Below are positions 29,603 through 46,899 of a DNA stretch of 64,000 nt, piece by piece. Position 1 is the stretch's first letter, and every line of letters starts with the position of its first letter. Source of the stretch: Candidatus Hermodarchaeota archaeon (lineage in GTDB: Archaea > Asgardarchaeota > Thorarchaeia > Thorarchaeales > Thorarchaeaceae). Both the position numbers and the translations under genes were made by a program. The stretch covers positions 96,001-160,000 of the forward strand of contig JBHLLF010000003.1 of the NCBI GenBank assembly GCA_048885865.1. The letters are read 5' to 3'. A model generated the notes under the pieces. The model was not told the DNA's origin, did no database searches, and worked only from the letters and a program-made list of their open reading frames with translations.

Positions 29603-32600
29603 TTAGCTCTTTCTCGCCTTTGTGATTACCGGACCAAGATAGTCGTGATATAAACGAAGATATGATTCATCACGGGATACCAGAGCTAGAGGTGTGCCAG
29701 CCGTTTCGGATCCGCCAACCAAAACTTCCGATTTGTCAATAAGAGCCAAGGTTGTCGGTGCCTCTGTATGCCAAATCCTCCAGCCTTCGAGGGAGCTCAA
29801 TGCTGAATCCATCTCTTCGGTGTCAGGGACAACAAGAATCTTTCGACGAGGTCCTTTCGCTTTGGCTAGCTTCTTCAGGTCCAAACATTCAAGGTCCATT
29901 ACGGAAAGCACAACTGACTTTTCAGCTCGGGAAACCATGTCAAGCATGTGTGCGCAAATCTCATCGTTACCAGTAACATACCATGTGTTCTCGGTTGTGA
30001 GGGAAAGCAACTCCTCCCGCGCAATCTTGACAGCTTCAATTGTTTCGATAGATTGATTGGTCAGGTCAGATATGGCACCTATAGTTTCATCAAGGCCTCC
30101 CTTGAGCGAGGTGATGTCTTTCTTCTGCTCGGCGCTCCATTGCCTCAGAATCTTGTCTACGTGCTCACTCAGGCCATTGAATGCATCATTTCGAGTTTGG
30201 CGAAGATCTGAAAGGCCTTCATTTGCCTCATTCATTGCCTTTGCAGAGGAACCTGCAATCTCCGCATTCTTCACTGTTGTCTCATTTTGGGTACGCTCTG
30301 TGAGCCGTGCAGATTCACTGCCCACGTATGTCTTTAATTCAATACCCATGGATTCCAGCTTGCGAGATGCATATTGATTGGAAAACACTGAACTCTGCTT
30401 CGCTTCCTCGAGGGCTTTGTCCAGGCCTTTGGCTGCTTGCGTCACCATTCCATCAATAAGTGTCTTGGAGGTACTTGTGATAGACTTGGATGATTCAGAG
30501 AAGTCTGTGAGCGCCGTGTCAATGGTGGCTTTGGTTTCGTTCCCTATCTTGGCTGTCTGCTCAATGGCGTTTGATGAGGATGAAGCGATAACATCATTCA
30601 ATGTATTGGGCAGGTCAGATAGCGCCTCAGCCGCCTTTGTAAGAACATCCAAGCCATCATCACCAAACTGCACAGCGCTACCTTTGATGTCAGATTCTGT
30701 CTTCTTGAATAGGGCACGGCTCTTGGTTTCGACTTCCTTCAGATTCTTCTCCCCACGTTCTAGGACCTTTGCAGCAGTTGCATCTGCGGCTTTCTCCAAC
30801 TTGCCTCCAAGTGTGGAAATCTCACCTTCAAGCTTGTTGGCAAGCTGCTCAAGGGAGGATGTTAGATTGGATGAGGAGGTTTCGATTGTTTCTGAGGCTC
30901 CAGTGAAGGCGAGAGCGACCTCATTTCTTCGATCCTCAATTGCTGCCAATGCTTCTTCCCTAATTGCCCTAGCTGATTCCAGCCGAGAGGTTTCTTTCTC
31001 AGCGAGAGAGTTTTGGAATGCTTCAACATTGGAATTCGAAGCTTTTACAAGCTGAGATGCGAGATTATCCATCTTCTTACTGGTGTCTGCCAACAGAAGG
31101 TCTCCCGACTCTCTTTGTCTTGTTGTGTAGGCGTCTACTAGTTCAAGGAGTTTCCCTGTACTCTTTGCTATGCCGTCCTGAGTTGTTTCCTTGATGTTTG
31201 AAATACGCTCAGTGATGTTGTCTCGAGCACCAGTGACAGTTGCGCTGAACTCCCTCGAAACCTGATGTAGATTCTCCCCAAATTGATAGATTGTGCCAGT
31301 TTCTATTTCATTAAGCGCATCCTCTGTGCTCCTGACTGCATCCTCAATTCGGTTAAGCGTATCCGCCATAGACTCCGAGATTTCGGTTCGTTTGTTTGTA
31401 GATAACTCATCGAGGGCTTTCTTGATCGAGTCAGCGGCTCCTGCGAGCTCATCAATCCTCCCGCCCAACTGTGATGAGAAATCTTCTTGGAGTAGCATTG
31501 AGTCTTCTTGTAACGATGCCATTTCAGTTTTCAAAGCACCCTTGAACTCAGTATGTGCAGAAGAAATGAGGTCCCTCGCCTCAGATGTCTGGCTGGAGAG
31601 GAATCCATTGAATGTTGCCTCCAATCCTTTGATGAGGTTGGTGAATTGCTGTGCCAAATCTTCCAGGTGAACATGAAGCTCTTCCCGTATTCCCAATGCG
31701 TGCTGGTCAATACGCTCCACCTGGCCTGCCAGGGCTTTATCTATCTCTCTCTGCACTTTGTTGGCCTGACTTGTAAGAGTGCCTACACTTTGACCAAGCC
31801 GTTCATCAAGTTTCTCATTTAGATTCTCGTAGAGTGCTTTGGCATCTCGTATGTGAGAACGTGTGGTCGATACATATCCCGCACCAAGCTCAGAAAGATG
31901 TGTTCCAATTTCGGCTTCAAAGTCATGAGTTGCCTTCTTTACTGAGGTTAGAGCGGATGCATTCTTTGTTGATGATGTAGATATCACAGTGCTGAATGCG
32001 GATTTGAGTCTACTGTCAATGGAATCAACAAGAGTGTCCATTTCAGACACTTCTGTTTCCAGAATCTTGCTGATATCGGTGATAATCCTTGTTAATTTGG
32101 CGTCTACATTCTTCGTTGTGCTTGCAGACCACTTATCGACGTTGGATCTAATTTCTAGGTTTGCAGAATCGAGGTTTTTCTCTTGTGAGTTCAGCTGCTT
32201 CTTCAGGAGATCCAATGTCGAAGTTCGGCAACTGTTTAGATGTGATTCAAACTGCGTGATGCCCTCTATAGACATCTCCTTCAGGGTTTGGTACTCATTC
32301 GCAAAATGAGCTTGTGTCTTCTCGAGATTCCCTCGCACGGCAGCCTTCACATTTTCTAAGTAATCATTCTCAGTGGCGCTAACTCTATCGAGTTGAAGTC
32401 GCAAAGACTGCATGGCAACATCGCCAAAGGTGGCTACTTCTTCCTTCCAAACCCCAATAGTCTCCTTTGCTGCTTCACAAATTTCAAGAGCTGCTGCTAT
32501 CCGAGTTCTAGCTGCTTCCGATTCTTCGGCGATGTCTGATCGACCCTTGGTAGTGATTCCTCGTAGCGTTTCCTCCGCCACAGAGAATGCTGCAGTAAGC

Positions 32601-33508
32601 TCTGAGTCCATGCCAGAGATCGTGTCGTCTAGTGCTTTTGTGGCTTCACCAATAGAAGTAATTGCATCATCTGATGACGCGGTGGATTTTGCTAGAATCT
32701 CATCAGCTAATGCACTGACAGTCACATCCAGAGCAGCTCTTGAAATGCTCAATGCTTTGGAAACTGAATCACTCAATGTCTGGGTTAGTGTAAGCACCTC
32801 TTTCTCGAGAGCCTTCATTGCGGTGGTGGTGGACTTACCTTCTGAGGTGAGCCATTTTTCGAAGCTCTTGGAGATGTCATTTGCGGTGATTCCGAGCTCC
32901 TTCTGGCTCTTGTCAAGCTCAAGCTGAAGGGCTGAGAGCCGAGTGCCTAATCCTTCGTCGAGAGAAAGGCCGAATGTTTTCATTGTTTCCTCAATACTCT
33001 TTGTGAACGCTGAGAGTGCTTCAGTAGCAATTGACGTGATTATGTCCACCTGTGACTGAACAGCTGCAACCATATCAGTTTCATATGTTTGAAATGCAAC
33101 TTTGCCGTCATTCATGGTGTTTTTGTGCAGGTCAGAAACCGCGTTGACAGATTCGTCAATTCCTCTGAGATGGCCGTCAAACATCTTCTGGATATCTTCC
33201 AAGTTGATCTGTAAATCATCTCGCACTGAAGACAATGACCCCTCTAGTGAGAAGATAGTTGGTGATAGGCGGAAAATTGGCACCACGCCTTCAATTCGCG
33301 TCACCAGTCCTTTCTTTTCCAATCGGGCCAATGCGCTCTCAACCTTTTTGAGAGGCTCTCCCGAAGCTACAGAAACCCCGCCAGCTGTCATGTTGCCACC
33401 GGCAAACACAGGGAGGATTGCCTTAGCTTCAATATTCGTTATTCCCAAACTTCTCTTTAATACTGGAATGCTTTCTGCTACTACATTTCCACTCAAGATG
33501 AATCCCAC
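29603..33508 (-). CDS. 1301-aa protein: TrmB-like N-terminal wHTH, about 1100-aa helical/coiled-coil rod, TrmB-like C-terminal domain
   Basis: LGITNIEAKAIL...VESALARLEKKGLV (TrmB HTH); TWYVTGNDEICAHMLDMVSRAEKSVVL...LIDKSEVLVG (TrmB C-terminal/PLD-like); amphipathic A/S/T/L/E/K-rich middle. Confidence 0.8.
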   Translation of the reverse strand: MGFILSGNVVAESIPVLKRSLGITNIEAKAILPVFAGGNMTAGGVSVASGEPLKKVESALARLEKKGLVTRIEGVVPIFRLSPTIFSLEGSLSSVRDDLQINLEDIQKMFDGHLRGIDESVNAVSDLHKNTMNDGKVAFQTYETDMVAAVQSQVDIITSIATEALSAFTKSIEETMKTFGLSLDEGLGTRLSALQLELDKSQKELGITANDISKSFEKWLTSEGKSTTTAMKALEKEVLTLTQTLSDSVSKALSISRAALDVTVSALADEILAKSTASSDDAITSIGEATKALDDTISGMDSELTAAFSVAEETLRGITTKGRSDIAEESEAARTRIAAALEICEAAKETIGVWKEEVATFGDVAMQSLRLQLDRVSATENDYLENVKAAVRGNLEKTQAHFANEYQTLKEMSIEGITQFESHLNSCRTSTLDLLKKQLNSQEKNLDSANLEIRSNVDKWSASTTKNVDAKLTRIITDISKILETEVSEMDTLVDSIDSRLKSAFSTVISTSSTKNASALTSVKKATHDFEAEIGTHLSELGAGYVSTTRSHIRDAKALYENLNEKLDERLGQSVGTLTSQANKVQREIDKALAGQVERIDQHALGIREELHVHLEDLAQQFTNLIKGLEATFNGFLSSQTSEARDLISSAHTEFKGALKTEMASLQEDSMLLQEDFSSQLGGRIDELAGAADSIKKALDELSTNKRTEISESMADTLNRIEDAVRSTEDALNEIETGTIYQFGENLHQVSREFSATVTGARDNITERISNIKETTQDGIAKSTGKLLELVDAYTTRQRESGDLLLADTSKKMDNLASQLVKASNSNVEAFQNSLAEKETSRLESARAIREEALAAIEDRRNEVALAFTGASETIETSSSNLTSSLEQLANKLEGEISTLGGKLEKAADATAAKVLERGEKNLKEVETKSRALFKKTESDIKGSAVQFGDDGLDVLTKAAEALSDLPNTLNDVIASSSSNAIEQTAKIGNETKATIDTALTDFSESSKSITSTSKTLIDGMVTQAAKGLDKALEEAKQSSVFSNQYASRKLESMGIELKTYVGSESARLTERTQNETTVKNAEIAGSSAKAMNEANEGLSDLRQTRNDAFNGLSEHVDKILRQWSAEQKKDITSLKGGLDETIGAISDLTNQSIETIEAVKIAREELLSLTTENTWYVTGNDEICAHMLDMVSRAEKSVVLSVMDLECLDLKKLAKAKGPRRKILVVPDTEEMDSALSSLEGWRIWHTEAPTTLALIDKSEVLVGGSETAGTPLALVSRDESYLRLYHDYLGPVITKARKS

Positions 33509-33541
33509 CGCTAGTGATTCAAGAAGTAGTCCCGATTTGGA

Positions 33542-34369
33542 CTACTCTGACTTCTTACGTCGTTTGGATTTGGAAACTCCTTCAAACAGAGAAATCAAAT
33601 CCTGTACCTCAAATGGAGAATTGCCTCCATTCGAAATGATCTCAGCCTCAATGTGCCCAGAACCGTCAGCCATGTCAATATGCAGATCTTCATATTTTTG
33701 GAGGGTATTTTCCTCTAGCAGAGACCCCTCTTTCAGGGGCTTCACACCATCAAGTTCGATAGTTAGAAGCCACCAGTTGGTTGCCAAATCTGATACAGAT
33801 GCATTGATGCCATAATGCTTTGATAATAGCTCCACATACATCCTGAAGACCTGGAAGGTATTAACCTCATGATGACGAGGATTCACTATGACAATGCCCC
33901 TTGCAAAATCAAAATGGAATATCAAATCATCTCCTGCAACAAGCATGATATTATCCTCTTGGACATCGGAGGTGGTTTTCCAGATTTTCTTGAATCGAGA
34001 AGCAAAATGCTTGATTGAACTGACTCTCAGAGTCGAAAGAAAGTCTTTCGTCTGAAGACGCCTATCTACCATGCCTCTTCCTTTCCTCTCAAGAATGAAA
34101 CGCTTTAGCTGTTCAAGGTATTGACTGTAGCAGAAGCTCGGCAGGTCCTCAGGTTCGACACCTATCTCTATCAGCATGTTGAGAAAATTGCGGTTATCGC
34201 AGGCCGGTCTTACGGTGCAACCTAGGCGGTCCTCCTGACATTCGCGACATCGCTCCTCATAAAGCTCTATGAACTCCTTGGCCAATTGACTATCTGCAGG
34301 GAGGTCTAAAAGCTCCATTCGCATCGCAAGTTCATTAGCATGCTTCTTTAGTTTCATTAATCGATTCAA
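33542..34369 (-). CDS. Hypothetical protein with N-terminal Cys cluster
   Basis: CRECQEDRLGCTVRPAC...FCY; 33 nt upstream of the 1301-aa gene. Confidence 0.75.
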   Translation of the reverse strand: MNRLMKLKKHANELAMRMELLDLPADSQLAKEFIELYEERCRECQEDRLGCTVRPACDNRNFLNMLIEIGVEPEDLPSFCYSQYLEQLKRFILERKGRGMVDRRLQTKDFLSTLRVSSIKHFASRFKKIWKTTSDVQEDNIMLVAGDDLIFHFDFARGIVIVNPRHHEVNTFQVFRMYVELLSKHYGINASVSDLATNWWLLTIELDGVKPLKEGSLLEENTLQKYEDLHIDMADGSGHIEAEIISNGGNSPFEVQDLISLFEGVSKSKRRKKSE

Positions 34370-34545
34370 CTCTGATTATGGTTCAGACTTTGGAGTGACC
34401 TGAGGTAATCTGCATGATCTCGATCAGTTCATATGCAGCACATAAGGCTCCAGATGCGAATGCGCATTTCAGTTTGATAAGTTTATGGCAGGTGACATGC
34501 TTCTCAATCGACCTCTGATTTGTATTTCCGATAATTGAGAGAAGC

Positions 34546-35466
34546 TTAGCTTGTCTTCGCCATCTCTTTAAGCTTGGTAGCCCAATTGCGAATCTCCGTG
34601 TTCAGATTTGCTATGTCATTCTCATTGAGAGTAGCAGTAGGTGGATATGACTTGAGTTCTCTTGCCTTCTTGCCAAACTGGAAGAGAACGGGAGTATGTC
34701 CAGAGATCATTGTGGTCAGCTTATCACGAGTTTCTTCCAAAACACGAGCCATCTCGCGAGCCTCTGTTTGAGGAGTCACTTCTTTCAGAAGCCCCTTCAT
34801 GATCTCGTCAATGGTAGACATACTGACCTTCTTTGGGGTAGGCTCCTTTTCCTCCTTTTCTTCCTTTTCCTCCTCAGCTTTCTCCTTGACCGTCTTTTTA
34901 GTTGGCCTCTTCGCTGATTTCTCAGCAGGTTCGCCTGATTCAGATGCAGGAAGACTAGTCAGTGTTTCCAGCGCTTCTTCAATTCTGTCAATAGCTTGGT
35001 TATACTTGCGCTCTATGTCATCAAGCTGGCGGACAATTATACCAACTATCTCTTTCGTTTCCGTGAGGGATCCTGATACTTCCTGAACTGTGTCCTCAAG
35101 GCCGGAAAGGCCAGCAACATATTGTTGCAACTCATCAATCTTCTTAGTGATAACTTCACCCTCAAGAGAACCAGCCATCTCTTCAATCTTCTTTACAACG
35201 TCGTCAGCTGTGCTCGAATTGCTCACTTCATTACTAAGATCCGATAATCCAACGAGGATATCATCCATCTTCTTGAAGAGAACTTCCATCTCCTTCGAGT
35301 CACGAACTTCAACTAAGTCGGAAGACATTGTATCAATTTTCTTGTCTATACCCTTCACTGAAGATAATTCCGCTAATTCGTTCTTGACAGAAGCGAGCTC
35401 ATCTGTGACCTTGTCGATTTTCTTTTCAATGGATTCAAGAGCTGCTTCGGACTTGTCGTCAGGCAT
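34546..35466 (-). CDS. Coiled-coil hypothetical protein
   Basis: Heptad-rich N-terminal ~170 aa, K/E-rich linker, small helical C-terminal domain. Confidence 0.78.
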   Translation of the reverse strand: MPDDKSEAALESIEKKIDKVTDELASVKNELAELSSVKGIDKKIDTMSSDLVEVRDSKEMEVLFKKMDDILVGLSDLSNEVSNSSTADDVVKKIEEMAGSLEGEVITKKIDELQQYVAGLSGLEDTVQEVSGSLTETKEIVGIIVRQLDDIERKYNQAIDRIEEALETLTSLPASESGEPAEKSAKRPTKKTVKEKAEEEKEEKEEKEPTPKKVSMSTIDEIMKGLLKEVTPQTEAREMARVLEETRDKLTTMISGHTPVLFQFGKKARELKSYPPTATLNENDIANLNTEIRNWATKLKEMAKTS

Positions 35467-35560
35467 GAAAATACCCCAACCTATGTAGCCGCTGTGTGGA
35501 GGATAGCCGCTGCATATTTAGATTTTCGTACTGCATTTGAGACTGTGTAATAACAGTCGA

Positions 35561-36385
35561 CTATAGTTTACTTGCCCGGACGACGGGAATGCCGAGGTCC
35601 TTCAGAATCGGAAATAGCACAGCTTTGTTCTCAGCATTAGTTCCTTTCCAGTCAATAATCGCTTGTGTTATTTCTTGAGCGCTCCGCTTCAACATCTGAG
35701 AGACAACACCCTGTGTAATCTGGTTCAATGCGTACTTTGGAGCCATATGTCCTATTGTGACATCTTTCTCAAGCACAAGTTTGTTGAATTTGCTGGCATA
35801 ATGTGTCCCGCCGAAGCCAATTGAGGCGCCACCAGTCATAGGTTCTTTGACGCAGTCCATCACTGCTGCGGCAACTGCCTGGGCTCCTTCCTCATGACTC
35901 CAATACTTCTCATCACTGCCAAGCTCCACAAAAAGAAGAGGAGTATTCATTGATGTGGGACCATGATGTGTGACCTCCAATGTTACATCAAACTCAGCTA
36001 GATTCCGTTCGATCTTCTGCTGGTTGAGACTCTTGAGTGCAATAGAAACAAGGGATGGAGCAGAGACTGATAGCTGTCTAGGTCTTCCCCCAAAGTCCGC
36101 TTGCGGACCAAAATTCCCTGTACTATGAACGAGAAGAGCAGGTTTCCCTGATGCCGCTCGATGTCGAGAACAATAGATGAACACCTCAGCTTGAAAATGG
36201 TCCTCTAGGTAGCCTGAATGAATCATGTCTTGATTTATTGTGATGAGTAGCGCATCATCCAGCCTGTAGACCGGATTACCCTCAAACAGTTCACCCGTCC
36301 TTTCGAATTCATACTCATCGCGAAGGGCTTTGGCAATCGTCTGGCTTGCTATATCTTCAGTGGAACACACCAAGACTCTCATCAA
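35561..36385 (-). CDS. dtdA: D-aminoacyl-tRNA deacylase (archaeal DTD2/GEK1 type)
   Basis: SRH, LVHSTGN, LEVTHHGP, FVELGS, GFGGTHYA. Confidence 0.92.
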   Translation of the reverse strand: MMRVLVCSTEDIASQTIAKALRDEYEFERTGELFEGNPVYRLDDALLITINQDMIHSGYLEDHFQAEVFIYCSRHRAASGKPALLVHSTGNFGPQADFGGRPRQLSVSAPSLVSIALKSLNQQKIERNLAEFDVTLEVTHHGPTSMNTPLLFVELGSDEKYWSHEEGAQAVAAAVMDCVKEPMTGGASIGFGGTHYASKFNKLVLEKDVTIGHMAPKYALNQITQGVVSQMLKRSAQEITQAIIDWKGTNAENKAVLFPILKDLGIPVVRASKL

Positions 36386-36397
36386 ATCACCAGAAGC

Positions 36398-37633
36398 CTA
36401 TGCAATATTGGTCTTTTCGAGAAGGGGCTCAAGAGAGATCTCCATCTGAAGCTTTACCTTTTCATCAAAGGACTCTAGAATCTCGGATTCAATCCTCACC
36501 TTGAAGTCCTTTGCACGATCAATCTCACGAGTAATATCATCCCTGATTCTTAGCATGTCACTTCGATGATACTCCAAGTTCCTTTCAGCTTCATTCAATT
36601 CCTCTTGCAGTTTTGCACTCTTCGCATATATGTCAGAATCAGCAAAAGCATGACGCTTCTCTTCAAGTTCCTTTGCTTTCTCCTGAAGCTCACCCAGAGA
36701 TCCGCTGCTGATGGCTTGGACCTCTTCAATAGCCCTTCTTGCCAGCCGGTCCTTCATAGGTAGCTTGCCATTCTCAATTGCCTGTCTCAAACCGGCTAAT
36801 CCCTCCAACAATCCAGGATAGCCGATTGGCTCTTCCACGATGGCATCATAGGGATTCTCGAAGTATTCGTTCAGCGCCTTCTGCCCTGTCGCACCAACTC
36901 GTACTCCTGTATCATGTTGAAAGAACTTCTTCACCTGCTTCTTGAGGGGATTCAGTTTCATTCTCAAGAGACTCGCAATATGGTCTGCTTCGGAGTCGAT
37001 GTTCAGCAAATCCGCTACATTTGAAGTTTCAGTGAATTCCTCATACTTTTTCTTTGCTGATTCATATTCAGTCAGTGCTGTTTCAATCTTTGCTCGAGTC
37101 GTACGAATTTGCTCTTCATATACCTCTTTACTAAAGCCAAGATCTTGAAGAGTCTGGATTCTACCACCTATGCGCTCTAAATCCTTCAGCCAGCTGAACT
37201 CGTAAAGGAGCTTCTGTATCTTGTTCATCTCAGACATGAGTTCTTTCATGCTGACATCCAGCTGCTTGATAGTACTCTTGTGCTTCTTGTCCATCCGTCT
37301 AATCCAACGAGCGCCAGCACCCCAGAGTTCTTGGATGAAGCTTCGAATCCCTTCTTGAAGCGACTCAGTGCTTTCGTACGTTATTTCCTTACCAACGTAG
37401 AAATCATTTGTAATGTCTTCAACCTTCATTGCGAATCTCGTAGCAATTCCTATGGAATCAGGGTCATCATCTTCACCTGGTTCCTTAAGATTCCGCGACA
37501 TCACCTGAATGTCTTTGAGAGCTCTCTCGACAATCCTGTAGCTCTTTTCAGCCTTCTTTGTAAAATCCTTGGACATCTTGCTTAGACGATTGCGATACCA
37601 CTTCTGAAGCTGCTCGATTGTTAGAGTCGTCAT
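36398..37633 (-). CDS. Coiled-coil hypothetical protein
   Basis: 411 aa, predominantly helical with heptads; 12 nt upstream of dtdA. Confidence 0.78.
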   Translation of the reverse strand: MTTLTIEQLQKWYRNRLSKMSKDFTKKAEKSYRIVERALKDIQVMSRNLKEPGEDDDPDSIGIATRFAMKVEDITNDFYVGKEITYESTESLQEGIRSFIQELWGAGARWIRRMDKKHKSTIKQLDVSMKELMSEMNKIQKLLYEFSWLKDLERIGGRIQTLQDLGFSKEVYEEQIRTTRAKIETALTEYESAKKKYEEFTETSNVADLLNIDSEADHIASLLRMKLNPLKKQVKKFFQHDTGVRVGATGQKALNEYFENPYDAIVEEPIGYPGLLEGLAGLRQAIENGKLPMKDRLARRAIEEVQAISSGSLGELQEKAKELEEKRHAFADSDIYAKSAKLQEELNEAERNLEYHRSDMLRIRDDITREIDRAKDFKVRIESEILESFDEKVKLQMEISLEPLLEKTNIA

Positions 37634-37775
37634 TGAAAGCCCACCTGAGATTCGAAAGGGTTTTCCGAGTGCACTTTATCAACTTTGTGACCCGAGCGTA
37701 GCTGCACAACTTGTGTATGGTAGAGCTTTTAACTCTAGGAAACTCGGAGAAACTAGCATAGGAACGTGGTCGGTC

Positions 37776-38579
37776 ATGTCCGAGATCTTTGAAACCGGTA
37801 ACCGACGTCCAAGGCTCGACATCAATTATGCTGTTGAATGTGCGTCATGAGGCGTAGGTCGCATCGGTTTCTACATCAGACGCCTCGGACTGATAGATCC
37901 CACCGGAAAGGAACGACTACTGCTCAAGAATCCTGCTGACTATAAAGGCGGAATCTGGGCGTCTTATGTCGCAGATGGGACTGTAGCTGTCGTCGAGTCG
38001 ACAGAAGCTGACACCATCGCTGTCGTGGAGCGAAAGCAGAAGAAAGGTAGCCTAAGTCTAGTGATGAGCCATACACCTCAAGAATTCGAGGAACCTGTGG
38101 TCAACTTCACACTTGATTTATGGAGCTACAATAAACCTGTCTTGCTACTTCGGCATACGACAACAAACGTCAGTTCCAGCATGGTCCAAGACCTCAAGGT
38201 CTACAGCATCTTCGACTTCGATATAGGAGGTCCAATGAGCTACAAAGACGACATGGGCACCTATGACGAAAAGAACGGAATCGTCATTGCCTATGATGAA
38301 AGCCAGGTTTCTGTAGCCATTTCCTCACAGCCGAGTCCCGATGGCTGGGAGATATCATCTCCACTGAAGCTCAAGGTAGAATCAGATAAGCGCGACCTAA
38401 GGAACAATCCCGAAGCGGGACCGAAGGACATTGCCACCGGTCTGCAGTGCAACCTAGGCGATTTAAAGCCGGGTGATAGCAGTTCGGTGGATCTTGTCCT
38501 CGCCTCCGCGCACGGTCTTGACGAGGTTCGAAGCCTCATCGATATGTCATGGGGCTTCTTCAACAAGAAAATCCGATGA
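37776..38579 (+). CDS. Putative selenoprotein (267 aa, Sec at codon 25, CxxU motif), function unknown
   Basis: ATG 37776 is in frame with tracked ORF 38025-38579 (offset 249 nt). The only interruption is TGA at 37848-37850 in MSEIFETGNRRPRLDINYAVECAS*GVGRIGFYIRRL. A SECIS-like hairpin lies at the 3' end. Confidence 0.82.
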
Positions 38580-38621
38580 TATCTACACCTAAAGCAATGC
38601 GGTGTCGATGGAGGCCGGGTT
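38570..38621 (+). promoter_or_regulatory. Eukaryote-type SECIS element
   Basis: Helix I AATCCG/CGGGTT; core ATGA(38576-79)...GA(38611-12); helix II TATC-T-ACACC / GGTGT-C-GATG; AAA 11 nt after ATGA; apical GC-AAT-GC mini-stem. Confidence 0.8.
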
Positions 38622-38642
38622 GCAGCCCGCGGCAAGCAGTGG

Positions 38643-38692
38643 AAAAAAAGAGAATGAGAGGGGATTACTCTCGAAAGTGATCCCGCCTCTCA
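38643..38692 (-). terminator. Stem-loop plus T7 tract after the wHTH gene
   Basis: Minus strand TGAGAGG-CG-GGATCAC-TTTCGAGA-GTAATCC-CCTCTCA followed by TTCTCTTTTTTT. Confidence 0.6.
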
Positions 38693-39082
38693 CTTGTAAT
38701 ACTGTTCTTCGAGGAAGTTAGCCAACATTACAGCAGTTGCTGTAAGCTTTGCCAGCTGTCCTCTGTTTTCCATATCACCGCCAGATAGCAAACCCAAGTC
38801 CATTAAGGATCGCAGATTCCATTTCACAGTGCTATAGGCAACTGAAGTCCTGCGAGATACCTGGTCTGCTAATGCCGTCACTGTCAGATCATTATGCCTT
38901 AACAGCTGGGCACTCACTCTCAGAACGTATTTCTGAGTCTCACTCATTCTCATATCTGCTAGAGACAAGAATGACGCAGCGAGGCTCTCAAAAGAAGGCT
39001 TGGCGAAAGGTTCGTGACTCTCTTGGAATACCTGGTTGGCACTAGAGAATACATTCACCTCTTTGGCGAATTTGGCACTCAC
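38690..39082 (-). CDS. Winged helix-turn-helix protein
   Basis: LTVTALADQVSRRTSVAYSTVKWNLRSLMDLGLL...AKLT; start uncertain. Confidence 0.7.
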   Translation of the reverse strand: MSAKFAKEVNVFSSANQVFQESHEPFAKPSFESLAASFLSLADMRMSETQKYVLRVSAQLLRHNDLTVTALADQVSRRTSVAYSTVKWNLRSLMDLGLLSGGDMENRGQLAKLTATAVMLANFLEEQYYK

Positions 39083-45564: not shown

Positions 45565-46899
45565 TCAGGGGCGTCTTTGCTTGCCGTACCCAATGATATC
45601 ATCGAATTTTAGAATAAGTCGATTCAGCCATGGGAAATAACGGACAACCCATAGCACAGCACGATGAAGTAGTCCATCTCGCTTATTATAGGGACAGGAT
45701 CTTATGCAATTGGAGCAATCACTCCCATTCTCAATCCAGAAGCCATAGCAGGTTTCTGGGTTCACAAACCACTTCTTGACACCCGGATTGTTAGATTTGG
45801 TGGCGCCAGACCAACCCCGATCTTTACCAACAGGAATTGACTTTGAAGGGCAATGATGGGCGCATTTCTCGCATACGTCGCAGAAACGAATTACAGCGTC
45901 ACAGAAACCATAATCTGGAGAATCGCTTAGTAAGGGCATATCTGTGAGAACCTTAGCAATTCTGACCCTCGGGCCAAACTCCTTTGTGATTAGCAGACCA
46001 TGCCGTCCATACTGGCCCAGTCCTGCGTCAATAGCAAGAGGGACGCTGAGAGCTATGTCATTCCCGCAGGGAATTGCACCATATCCAAGTCTCCTAATGA
46101 AGGCCGTTAGCTCAATCTCAGCAAAGGCCATCATCGAATAGCCAACTGCAGTACTTGTAGCACTGGCAAATGCAGGTGACTTCGAGATGCCTTCATAGTC
46201 CATTTCAATGGCCATCACAATTGCATGACTGAAACGTTCAGGAACATGATAAGGCTCTCCACGCCGATTAACACTGTACAACCATCTTCTGTCCAAAGCA
46301 GCGATGCCAACAAGAGAAGCTCCGTAAATTCTTGCAGCTCTCTTGATTTCATCAGTGAGTTTCTTCGCGCCCCATTCAGCACGCTTTTCTAAATTGGAAT
46401 CAGTTTGAGCATCTCCCAGAAGAGGGCCTACTACAGCAGCTCTATTGTCATACAATCTCCAACCAGCTTCTGCTCTTTCATATTCAAATCGGTCATACCC
46501 TGGTATGTTTCGAGAAACCATGGCTTCCCCACCGTAAAAGGCATGCTTACCATAGTGTTCGAAATCAGGATCATTGAAGACTCGAGCGAATATCATATCG
46601 CTCTCAGGAAACTGCTCAAGATCGTCAGCTGTCTGATATGGCCGAGTGTAATCCTTCCTGTGAGATGCTTCTTTCTGAGCCTTCAATTTTCCAGTCATTA
46701 CGATTCTAGTGCTAGAAATGGCTCCAAAGGGGCAGGCTCTAACACAACCTAGGCAGTCTGTGCAATCTCTAACAATTCTGGGATAGGCAGCGCCCTCTTC
46801 GAAAATAAGAGATGGATCCTCACTATGAAAACGATTACAAGCCGCTATGCATTCCCTATTGCACTCATTTGATTTGCATAGCTGTTGGTCGATGTACAT
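45565..46899 (-). CDS. rdhA: Reductive dehalogenase-family (RdhA-like) cobalamin/Fe-S protein with N-terminal ferredoxin, no TAT signal
   Basis: GASLVGIA, AIDAGLGQYGRHGLLIT..FGPRVR, FCDVCEKCAHHCP, CSNCIRSCP; N-terminal CxxxxCxxxCxxxC and CxxCxxCxxxCP. Confidence 0.85.
   Translation of the reverse strand: MYIDQQLCKSNECNRECIAACNRFHSEDPSLIFEEGAAYPRIVRDCTDCLGCVRACPFGAISSTRIVMTGKLKAQKEASHRKDYTRPYQTADDLEQFPESDMIFARVFNDPDFEHYGKHAFYGGEAMVSRNIPGYDRFEYERAEAGWRLYDNRAAVVGPLLGDAQTDSNLEKRAEWGAKKLTDEIKRAARIYGASLVGIAALDRRWLYSVNRRGEPYHVPERFSHAIVMAIEMDYEGISKSPAFASATSTAVGYSMMAFAEIELTAFIRRLGYGAIPCGNDIALSVPLAIDAGLGQYGRHGLLITKEFGPRVRIAKVLTDMPLLSDSPDYGFCDAVIRFCDVCEKCAHHCPSKSIPVGKDRGWSGATKSNNPGVKKWFVNPETCYGFWIENGSDCSNCIRSCPYNKRDGLLHRAVLWVVRYFPWLNRLILKFDDIIGYGKQRRP

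Follow-up and report, generated by a model that had tools for sequence, protein, structure and literature searches.

The window analysed here is a 64,000-nucleotide stretch of the genome of a Candidatus Hermodarchaeota archaeon (contig JBHLLF010000003.1, positions 96,001 to 160,000), and one of its genes raises the question of whether an in-frame TGA terminates translation or encodes selenocysteine (Sec). A frame of 267 codons runs from ATG 37776 to the TGA at 38577-38579, with a TGA at codon 25 (peptide context V-E-C-A-S-*-G-V-G) as its sole internal stop; the 184-aa ORF from GTG 38025 is the 3' portion of this frame, as the initial annotation had stated. Sec insertion is conventionally recognised by coding constraint through the UGA, exchange of U and C at the recoded position, a covarying SECIS element and the presence of the Sec machinery. 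Weighing the sequence evidence on each, we consider that the gene very probably encodes a genuine selenoprotein (probability approximately 0.96). Translation would begin at AUG 37776, and EFSec with Sec-tRNA(UCA) would insert Sec at UGA-25 under the guidance of a type II SECIS that overlaps the stop codon. The features of the locus are listed in Table 1.

Table 1. Features of the putative selenoprotein gene and its 3' flank (window coordinates).
Feature	Position	Strand	Remark
Full coding sequence, 267 aa if UGA-25 is read as Sec	37776..38579	+	Predicted stand-alone beta-supersandwich plus C-terminal helix
Codons 1-24, left out by gene callers	37776..37847	+	Strand E13-22 in the model
Cys22 (TGT), putative resolving Cys of CxxU	37839..37841	+	Cys in 26/27 Thorarchaeial orthologues
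In-frame TGA, predicted Sec25	37848..37850	+	Loop of the E13-22/E29-40 hairpin
Acidic motif D147-F-D149-I-G-G152...D159	38214..38252	+	Most conserved core segment
Type II eukaryote-like SECIS	38576..38613	+	AUGA core (38576-79) overlaps the stop codon
SECIS helix (8 bp)	38581-88/38602-09	+	Pairs covary
SECIS apical AAA; GC ministem; GA	38591-93; 38594-95/38599-600; 38611-12	+	
Side hairpin GGG-N6-CCC	38616..38629	+	Conserved, just 3' of the SECIS core
GC-rich hairpin with A-run	38656..38703	.	Chance level in scan; context only

The TGA is reproduced in other contigs. A contig from run X2, which derives from a different sediment sample but belongs to the study of the possible source run, is identical over 37739-37933, TGA included, and an X5 contig from a separate study covers 37504-38900 unbroken, its single gap lying upstream of the gene. 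Codon 25 is also TGA in each of the 27 Thorarchaeial orthologues whose codons were read individually, among which codon 24 uses six Ser codons. A sequencing error, one of the concerns raised in the initial annotation, is ruled out by these contigs and orthologues, and so is a chance occurrence of the TGA. Neither of two RNA runs compared covers the gene, a result that has no bearing on whether it is expressed.

Conservation extends to both sides of the codon. Full-length orthologues number 61 in Thorarchaeia; 60 of them contain exactly one TGA, and the remaining one (G373) has TGT, producing CxxC. In the alignment of 34 members sharing 18-63% identity, column 25 is U or C throughout, which is the pattern that had been predicted for homologues. 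The CxxC versions include those of two cultured organisms, Promethearchaeum syntrophicum (QEE16515.1) and Ca. Lokiarchaeum ossiferum (UYP48442.1). Residues 1-24, likewise expected to be conserved, are under purifying selection (pN/pS of 0.29 for codons 2-24 and 0.37 for codons 26-49 in the 27 Thorarchaeial orthologues). In a family tree, the Thorarchaeial Cys copy is nested among Sec copies; because the tree is unrooted, with long-branch outgroups and unsettled deep forks, we claim no order of Sec gain or loss beyond this nesting.

Two copies are atypical. The Thorarchaeial TGT copy of G373 (L055) retains a degenerate SECIS (57 bits) and may be explained by a recent switch from Sec to Cys or by faulty assembly. 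SepSecS and EFSec were not found in G373; loss of the Sec machinery was considered and rejected, since a TGA-containing SelD is still present in this genome, whose completeness is 89%. The copy in G020 (L029) matches residues 1-80 and 217-256 only, with both UGA and SECIS (75 bits) intact; it apparently carries an internal deletion, and is a pseudogene or a misassembly.

The genome containing the window encodes the machinery required. A PSTK-like gene, tRNA-Sec, SepSecS and EFSec are clustered on one contig (C4, 14.9-19.2 kb), and a TGA-containing, Sec-type SelD is located on another (C20). tRNA-Sec, SepSecS, EFSec and SelD score over the cut-off; the PSTK-like gene (E 2e-36) falls below it and lies inside the same cluster. 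TGA terminates 549 of 1496 long ORFs and the sole UCA tRNA is tRNA-Sec, which excludes a global change of the genetic code.

As had been anticipated, a SECIS element is present at the 3' end of the gene. Among 28 orthologues, two-sided changes occur in 8/8 pairs of its stem, 92% of cells are paired, and covariation is 0.574 (compared to 0.256 when shuffled and no more than 0.19 in slid controls). RNAalifold recovers the helix unaided, and a covariance model built from these elements scores 10 held-out Thorarchaeial Sec genes at 71-87 bits. The gene-specific covariance model applied to the whole genome has the gene's own locus as its sole match, missing the SECIS of SelD and those of the genome family designated f9. 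Among Sec genes, the SECIS pattern is found in 34/37 from Thorarchaeia, 12/12 from f9 and 2/2 from f16, where shuffled sequences would give <0.2 in each group; among non-Thorarchaeial Cys genes it is found in 0/5. The element agrees with the type II, eSECIS-like model of an earlier study and with the overlap of the stop codon reported there (PMC11227280).

It is comparison alone that reveals this element: single-sequence folding shows no preference for it (z of -0.5 to -0.9), and an Rfam scan of the locus returned no SECIS family match. A loose SECIS pattern gave 186 matches in a whole-genome scan, mostly by chance, and is useless for finding further selenoproteins. No canonical SECIS was identified within 90 nt of the stop in five f30-type members with TGA. 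These genes (L061-L063, L081 and L082) keep the UGA, and several have a hairpin preceded by GUGA that is possibly a divergent recoding element.

The side hairpin adjacent to the SECIS is 93% paired, although none of its three core pairs changes on both sides, and a lower helix is 60% paired, with 3/5 pairs covarying. In most orthologues, the hairpin and this helix may give rise to a three-way junction, which is apparently missing in the genus subgroup of the present genome. A comparable side hairpin is observed in f9 genes. In the SelD gene of the same genome (contig C20; L033, approximately 2515-2590), the SECIS overlaps the UGA stop and, as read by eye, is accompanied by a similar side hairpin and lower helix.

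The family is widespread in Asgard archaea beyond Thorarchaeia, which extends the initial annotation. The closest named relatives of the window are Candidatus Thorarchaeota, and the genomes with the gene include Thor AB_25 and SMTZ1-45. Full-length matches were used for Thorarchaeia, as the raw count (70/85) contains weak matches to a protease-like domain. A broader profile has matches in f9 (124/135), f29 (11/14), f30 (4/4, one weak), f16 (5/5) and f28 (1/1). It has none in the SepSecS-negative families f5, f14, f21 and f23 (0/77), nor in the Sec-using families f13 (0/3), f7 (0/5), f26 and f27, a comparison limited by incomplete genomes and kinship. The gene is single-copy and, in the genomes searched, the family is confined to Sec-using Asgard lineages. 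A feature search with the Cys orthologue returned unnamed archaeal clusters only.

P. syntrophicum and Ca. L. ossiferum belong to f29, where SepSecS is present; both of their genes encode CxxC and have no SECIS pattern. Synteny is common to f9 and f29, and on this basis we read f9 as Lokiarchaeial. The f9 genes have a TGA at codon 13-14 and a SECIS (12/12 inspected), and mostly start at a conserved AUA approximately 9 nt past a GGAGG Shine-Dalgarno sequence, so that a near-cognate AUA or AUU start is likely. Eight f9 copies (L030, L066, L068, L069, L071-L073 and L078) have no AUG ahead of the UGA. The f16 members encode CxxU, and their SECIS starts within the last codons.

The protein is predicted to adopt an all-beta fold with one C-terminal helix (AlphaFold2 model; pLDDT 92.6, pTM 0.90). 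Strand 13-22 (pLDDT 87-94 for residues 1-20) ends at C22, and U25 lies in a loop ahead of strand 29-40 (block pLDDT 65), which gives C22 and U25 the structural placement that had been lacking. The best structural match is the N domain of glucodextranase 1ulv (Z 23.3, rmsd 2.4, 227 aligned), in agreement with an earlier guess of a glucodextranase-N or supersandwich-type domain, followed by glucoamylase 1lf6 (Z 22.7) and GH94 phosphorylases. The whole chain (1-267), linker helix included, aligns to the N domains of GH15 (1ulv, 1lf6) and GH94 (2cqs, 8rf9) enzymes with Z of 21-23 and rmsd of 2.4-2.8, all within the galactose-mutarotase-like superfold. Unlike these enzymes, to which it is 11-16% identical, the protein has no (alpha/alpha)6 barrel and carries the Sec/Cys hairpin. 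Its chain ends at residue 267 (approximately 305-320 in relatives), and no GH barrel gene is adjacent in Thorarchaeial loci. As the catalytic barrel is absent, we do not consider it a glycoside hydrolase. GH15 and GH94 N domains are not known to be enzymatically active by themselves, a point against a catalytic role. Based on the model, the protein would be a soluble, stand-alone GH15/GH94-N-type beta-supersandwich with U25 on an exposed hairpin loop. The P. syntrophicum Cys orthologue is also modelled as a GH15/GH94-N-type supersandwich, its C-terminal Cys and CxxC loop both having pLDDT <50.

There was no Pfam match at E 1 and no NCBIfam match (June 2026 release) for the query, nothing better than E 0.002 for 25 members in NCBIfam, and no match in a PDB sequence search. 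The superfold of aldose 1-epimerase (galactose mutarotase), an enzyme with a catalytic His/Glu pair, is matched at a lower Z (14-16); at the level of the family alignment, no His or Glu is invariant. The model has no thioredoxin-type alpha/beta fold, in which CxxU would begin a helix: the motif lies between two strands. Residues ~105-260 do have sequence relatives in unnamed DFDI/DWDI supersandwich domains that occur in secreted proteases and in transglutaminase-like proteins, but these domains are parts of large, mostly secreted-looking proteins and are without the N-terminal Sec/Cys hairpin. One related domain, also without the hairpin, is encoded in the same genome (contig C6, near 121465) by a large, membrane-anchored, S8-protease-like protein (family guessed from motifs), and weak second matches resembling it are seen in most Thorarchaeia.

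What Sec25 does is suggested by which residues vary around it. The CxxU motif had been put forward as a redox hallmark; the motif holds in Thorarchaeia, where Cys22 is retained in nearly all orthologues, but not in most Lokiarchaeial-type (f9) members, which lack Cys22 and have a C-terminal Cys instead. Only the U/C at position 25, and not Cys22, is invariant in the family. Since position 25 alone is fixed while the nearest Cys shifts (from -3 to the C-terminal tail) and is missing once, U25 is likely the functional residue. The exception, the Thorarchaeial member L027, has no Cys at all, and resolution by an internal Cys is therefore not universal. Such a pattern is closer to that of a catalytic Sec whose resolving Cys varies than to that of a fixed metal site, and if the protein is a selenoprotein we lean slightly towards a redox-catalytic role. 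U25 would act as the nucleophile that reacts in a redox cycle of thiol-disulfide or peroxide type; its selenenylsulfide would be resolved by Cys22 in Thorarchaeia and by the C-terminal-tail Cys in Lokiarchaeial-type members (a predicted pairing). Among the 34 divergent members, D147 and G152 are invariant and F148, D149 and D159 are at least 90% conserved, making the D-F-D...D acidic motif a candidate ligand or cation site; the sandwich bearing it may bind a substrate or partner. More tentatively, and on balance doubtfully, the family could represent an ancestral Asgard-specific selenoenzyme, in which a glycoside-hydrolase accessory fold presents a selenol nucleophile to a bound carbohydrate or protein and expression in Lokiarchaeia is gated three times, by the non-AUG start, by the recoding of UGA and, within a single clade, by a tRNA-type (bulge-helix-bulge) mRNA intron beside the Sec codon.

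Alternatively, U25 could be a metal ligand, with C-x-x-U-G-x-G forming a rubredoxin- or zinc-ribbon-type knuckle for Zn, Fe, Ni or a heavy metal; the C-terminal Cys or another subunit would then complete the site. In favour of this, the motif occupies the turn of a beta-hairpin and has G-x-G after it, C-x-x-C-x-x-C occurs in one clade, and f29 and f30 members have three thiols (CxxC/U plus the C-terminal Cys). Thorarchaeia, however, would supply two ligands only, most f9 members are without C22 and L027 has U alone, a loss of ligands that a structural metal site is not expected to tolerate. The four-ligand rubredoxin/zinc-ribbon pattern of two CxxC pairs is absent (there is one CxxU in Thorarchaeia, and at most three conserved thiols elsewhere), and we regard metal binding as unlikely.

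We think it still less probable that the protein, instead of being an enzyme, senses selenium or redox state as part of a signalling module with a Roadblock/LC7-small GTPase fusion, where UGA readthrough would tie its level to selenium. Such a fusion is encoded directly upstream and co-oriented in 17/17 f9/f28/f29-type loci (22 nt from the gene in P. syntrophicum), and the near-cognate start of f9 genes, together with an intron beside the UGA in some, suggests tightly limited expression. The fusion is missing from Thorarchaeial, f16 and f30 loci, though, and the present genome has no full-length match to it among the top tblastn matches. Loci with the upstream fusion include L103-L105, L107, L108 and L080.

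An accessory role in selenium metabolism, as a selenide carrier or store serving SelD/SepSecS, would agree with a distribution within SepSecS-positive lineages and with the f16 arrangement, in which one GcvH-like gene separates the orthologue from SepSecS in four genomes; absence from the Sec-using families f13, f7, f26 and f27 and retention of a Cys version in f29 despite its Sec machinery make this very improbable. In one f16 genome (G349, L106:6600-14300), the orthologue is followed by the GcvH-like gene and then a convergent SepSecS, and the locus adjoins an HdrA-MvhD cluster and a radical SAM gene.

Finally, a true stop at the UGA (a short upstream ORF with re-initiation, or a pseudogene), or its reading as Trp or Cys through a genome-wide code change, is scarcely credible: databases hold only truncated forms of Sec versions (159-241 aa) and a 119-aa record (P0036) has W here, probably from a code-4 gene call, but these forms begin at scattered points 26-108 residues downstream and so share no alternative start, residues 13-22 are a core strand, genomic orthologues substitute Cys and never Trp, TGA is a common stop in the genome, and the SECIS covaries.

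With the selenoprotein reading preferred, the gene is corrected with respect to the searched databases, bearing out the suspicion that gene callers truncate it. The family is also probably unpublished. Five Asgard selenoprotein families were reported by Mariotti 2016, and seven by Huang 2024 via homology to known selenoproteins (PMC11227280); Sun 2021 and Valentin-Alvarado 2024 added none. A 2026 review lists 119 prokaryotic families, none named for a supersandwich fold (PMC13188914). The present family is absent from these four surveys and from the 119, the latter compared by the names in the table and through NCBIfam, which gave no match; a literature search, with subscription journals outside its coverage, found no description of it. 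Its omission from earlier surveys is plausibly due to their being mainly homology-driven, though the gene is present in both Thor genomes named above.

The known Asgard selenoproteins (SelD/SPS, VhuU/FrhA, HdrA, VhuD/FrhD, Prx-like, AhpF-N and DsbA-like; PMC4989117, PMC11227280) share host lineages with this family, and their genes share with it an in-frame UGA and a SECIS with an AUGA...GA core and apical adenines, placed at the 3' end, often over the stop, and of type II as in selD. The protein itself matches none of the seven, having no thioredoxin fold, flavin or Fe-S motif; the original impression that it resembled neither thioredoxin, SelD, HdrA, VhuD/U nor peroxiredoxin was thus well founded. 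CxxU and CxxC homologues also occur among the CxxU oxidoreductases (SelW-like/Rdx, GrdA and AhpD/CMD-like; PMC13188914 Table 1), from which the family differs in its fold, in the position of the motif on a beta-hairpin tip and in the dispensability of the first Cys. It adds an eighth Asgard selenoprotein family to the previous seven, which are all homologous to selenoproteins known elsewhere (PMC11227280, PMC13188914), and appears to be Asgard-specific. In short, this is a real, well supported and apparently unpublished new selenoprotein family that combines an unusual fold with a known recoding system, and it places Sec on a fold that has given its name to none of the families listed in 2026. 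It is near-universal in Thorarchaeia and in the largest Lokiarchaeial-type family, at a frequency there similar to that of SepSecS. The family provides many new natural SECIS for study of a eukaryote-like element that works without SBP2, and because the two cultured Lokiarchaeia have Cys versions, ordinary recombinant protein is sufficient for functional tests.

Several features surrounding these genes were recorded in addition. In five f9 genomes of one genus, an insert of 28-32 nt is found one base past the Sec UGA (L072:1085-1115 in the complete genome G235, and L099, L100, L101 and L102). The insert folds as a bulge-helix-bulge with a CUUG/CAAG helix and two 3-nt bulges. Its length breaks the frame in 5/5 copies, and predicted cuts after the second base of each bulge restore the frame in 5/5, with full-length products of 305-307 codons. 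These properties make the insert a probable mRNA intron of the bulge-helix-bulge type, adjacent to the Sec codon. A literature search found no report of such an intron in Asgard archaea; a precedent is the crenarchaeal cbf5 intron at a catalytic codon (PMC2738675).

In the window itself, the block upstream of the gene (29603-37633, minus strand) is conserved in Thorarchaeia. It contains genes for two coiled-coil proteins (one of 1301 aa with a TrmB-like start, the other of 411 aa) and for a D-aminoacyl-tRNA deacylase, together with two unknown genes. Genes beside Thorarchaeial copies are not redox genes, which weighs against a redox-catalytic role of the protein. Downstream, the GC-rich hairpin is probably the terminator of a convergent winged-helix gene (38690-39082, minus strand). 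Further along, 45565-46899 (minus strand) encodes a 444-aa double-Fe-S protein, for which Pfam gave 4Fe-4S matches only and whose C-terminal part is reductive dehalogenase-like by eye; its gene adjoins one that is MtrH-like and a corrinoid-activation-like gene with a ferredoxin domain.
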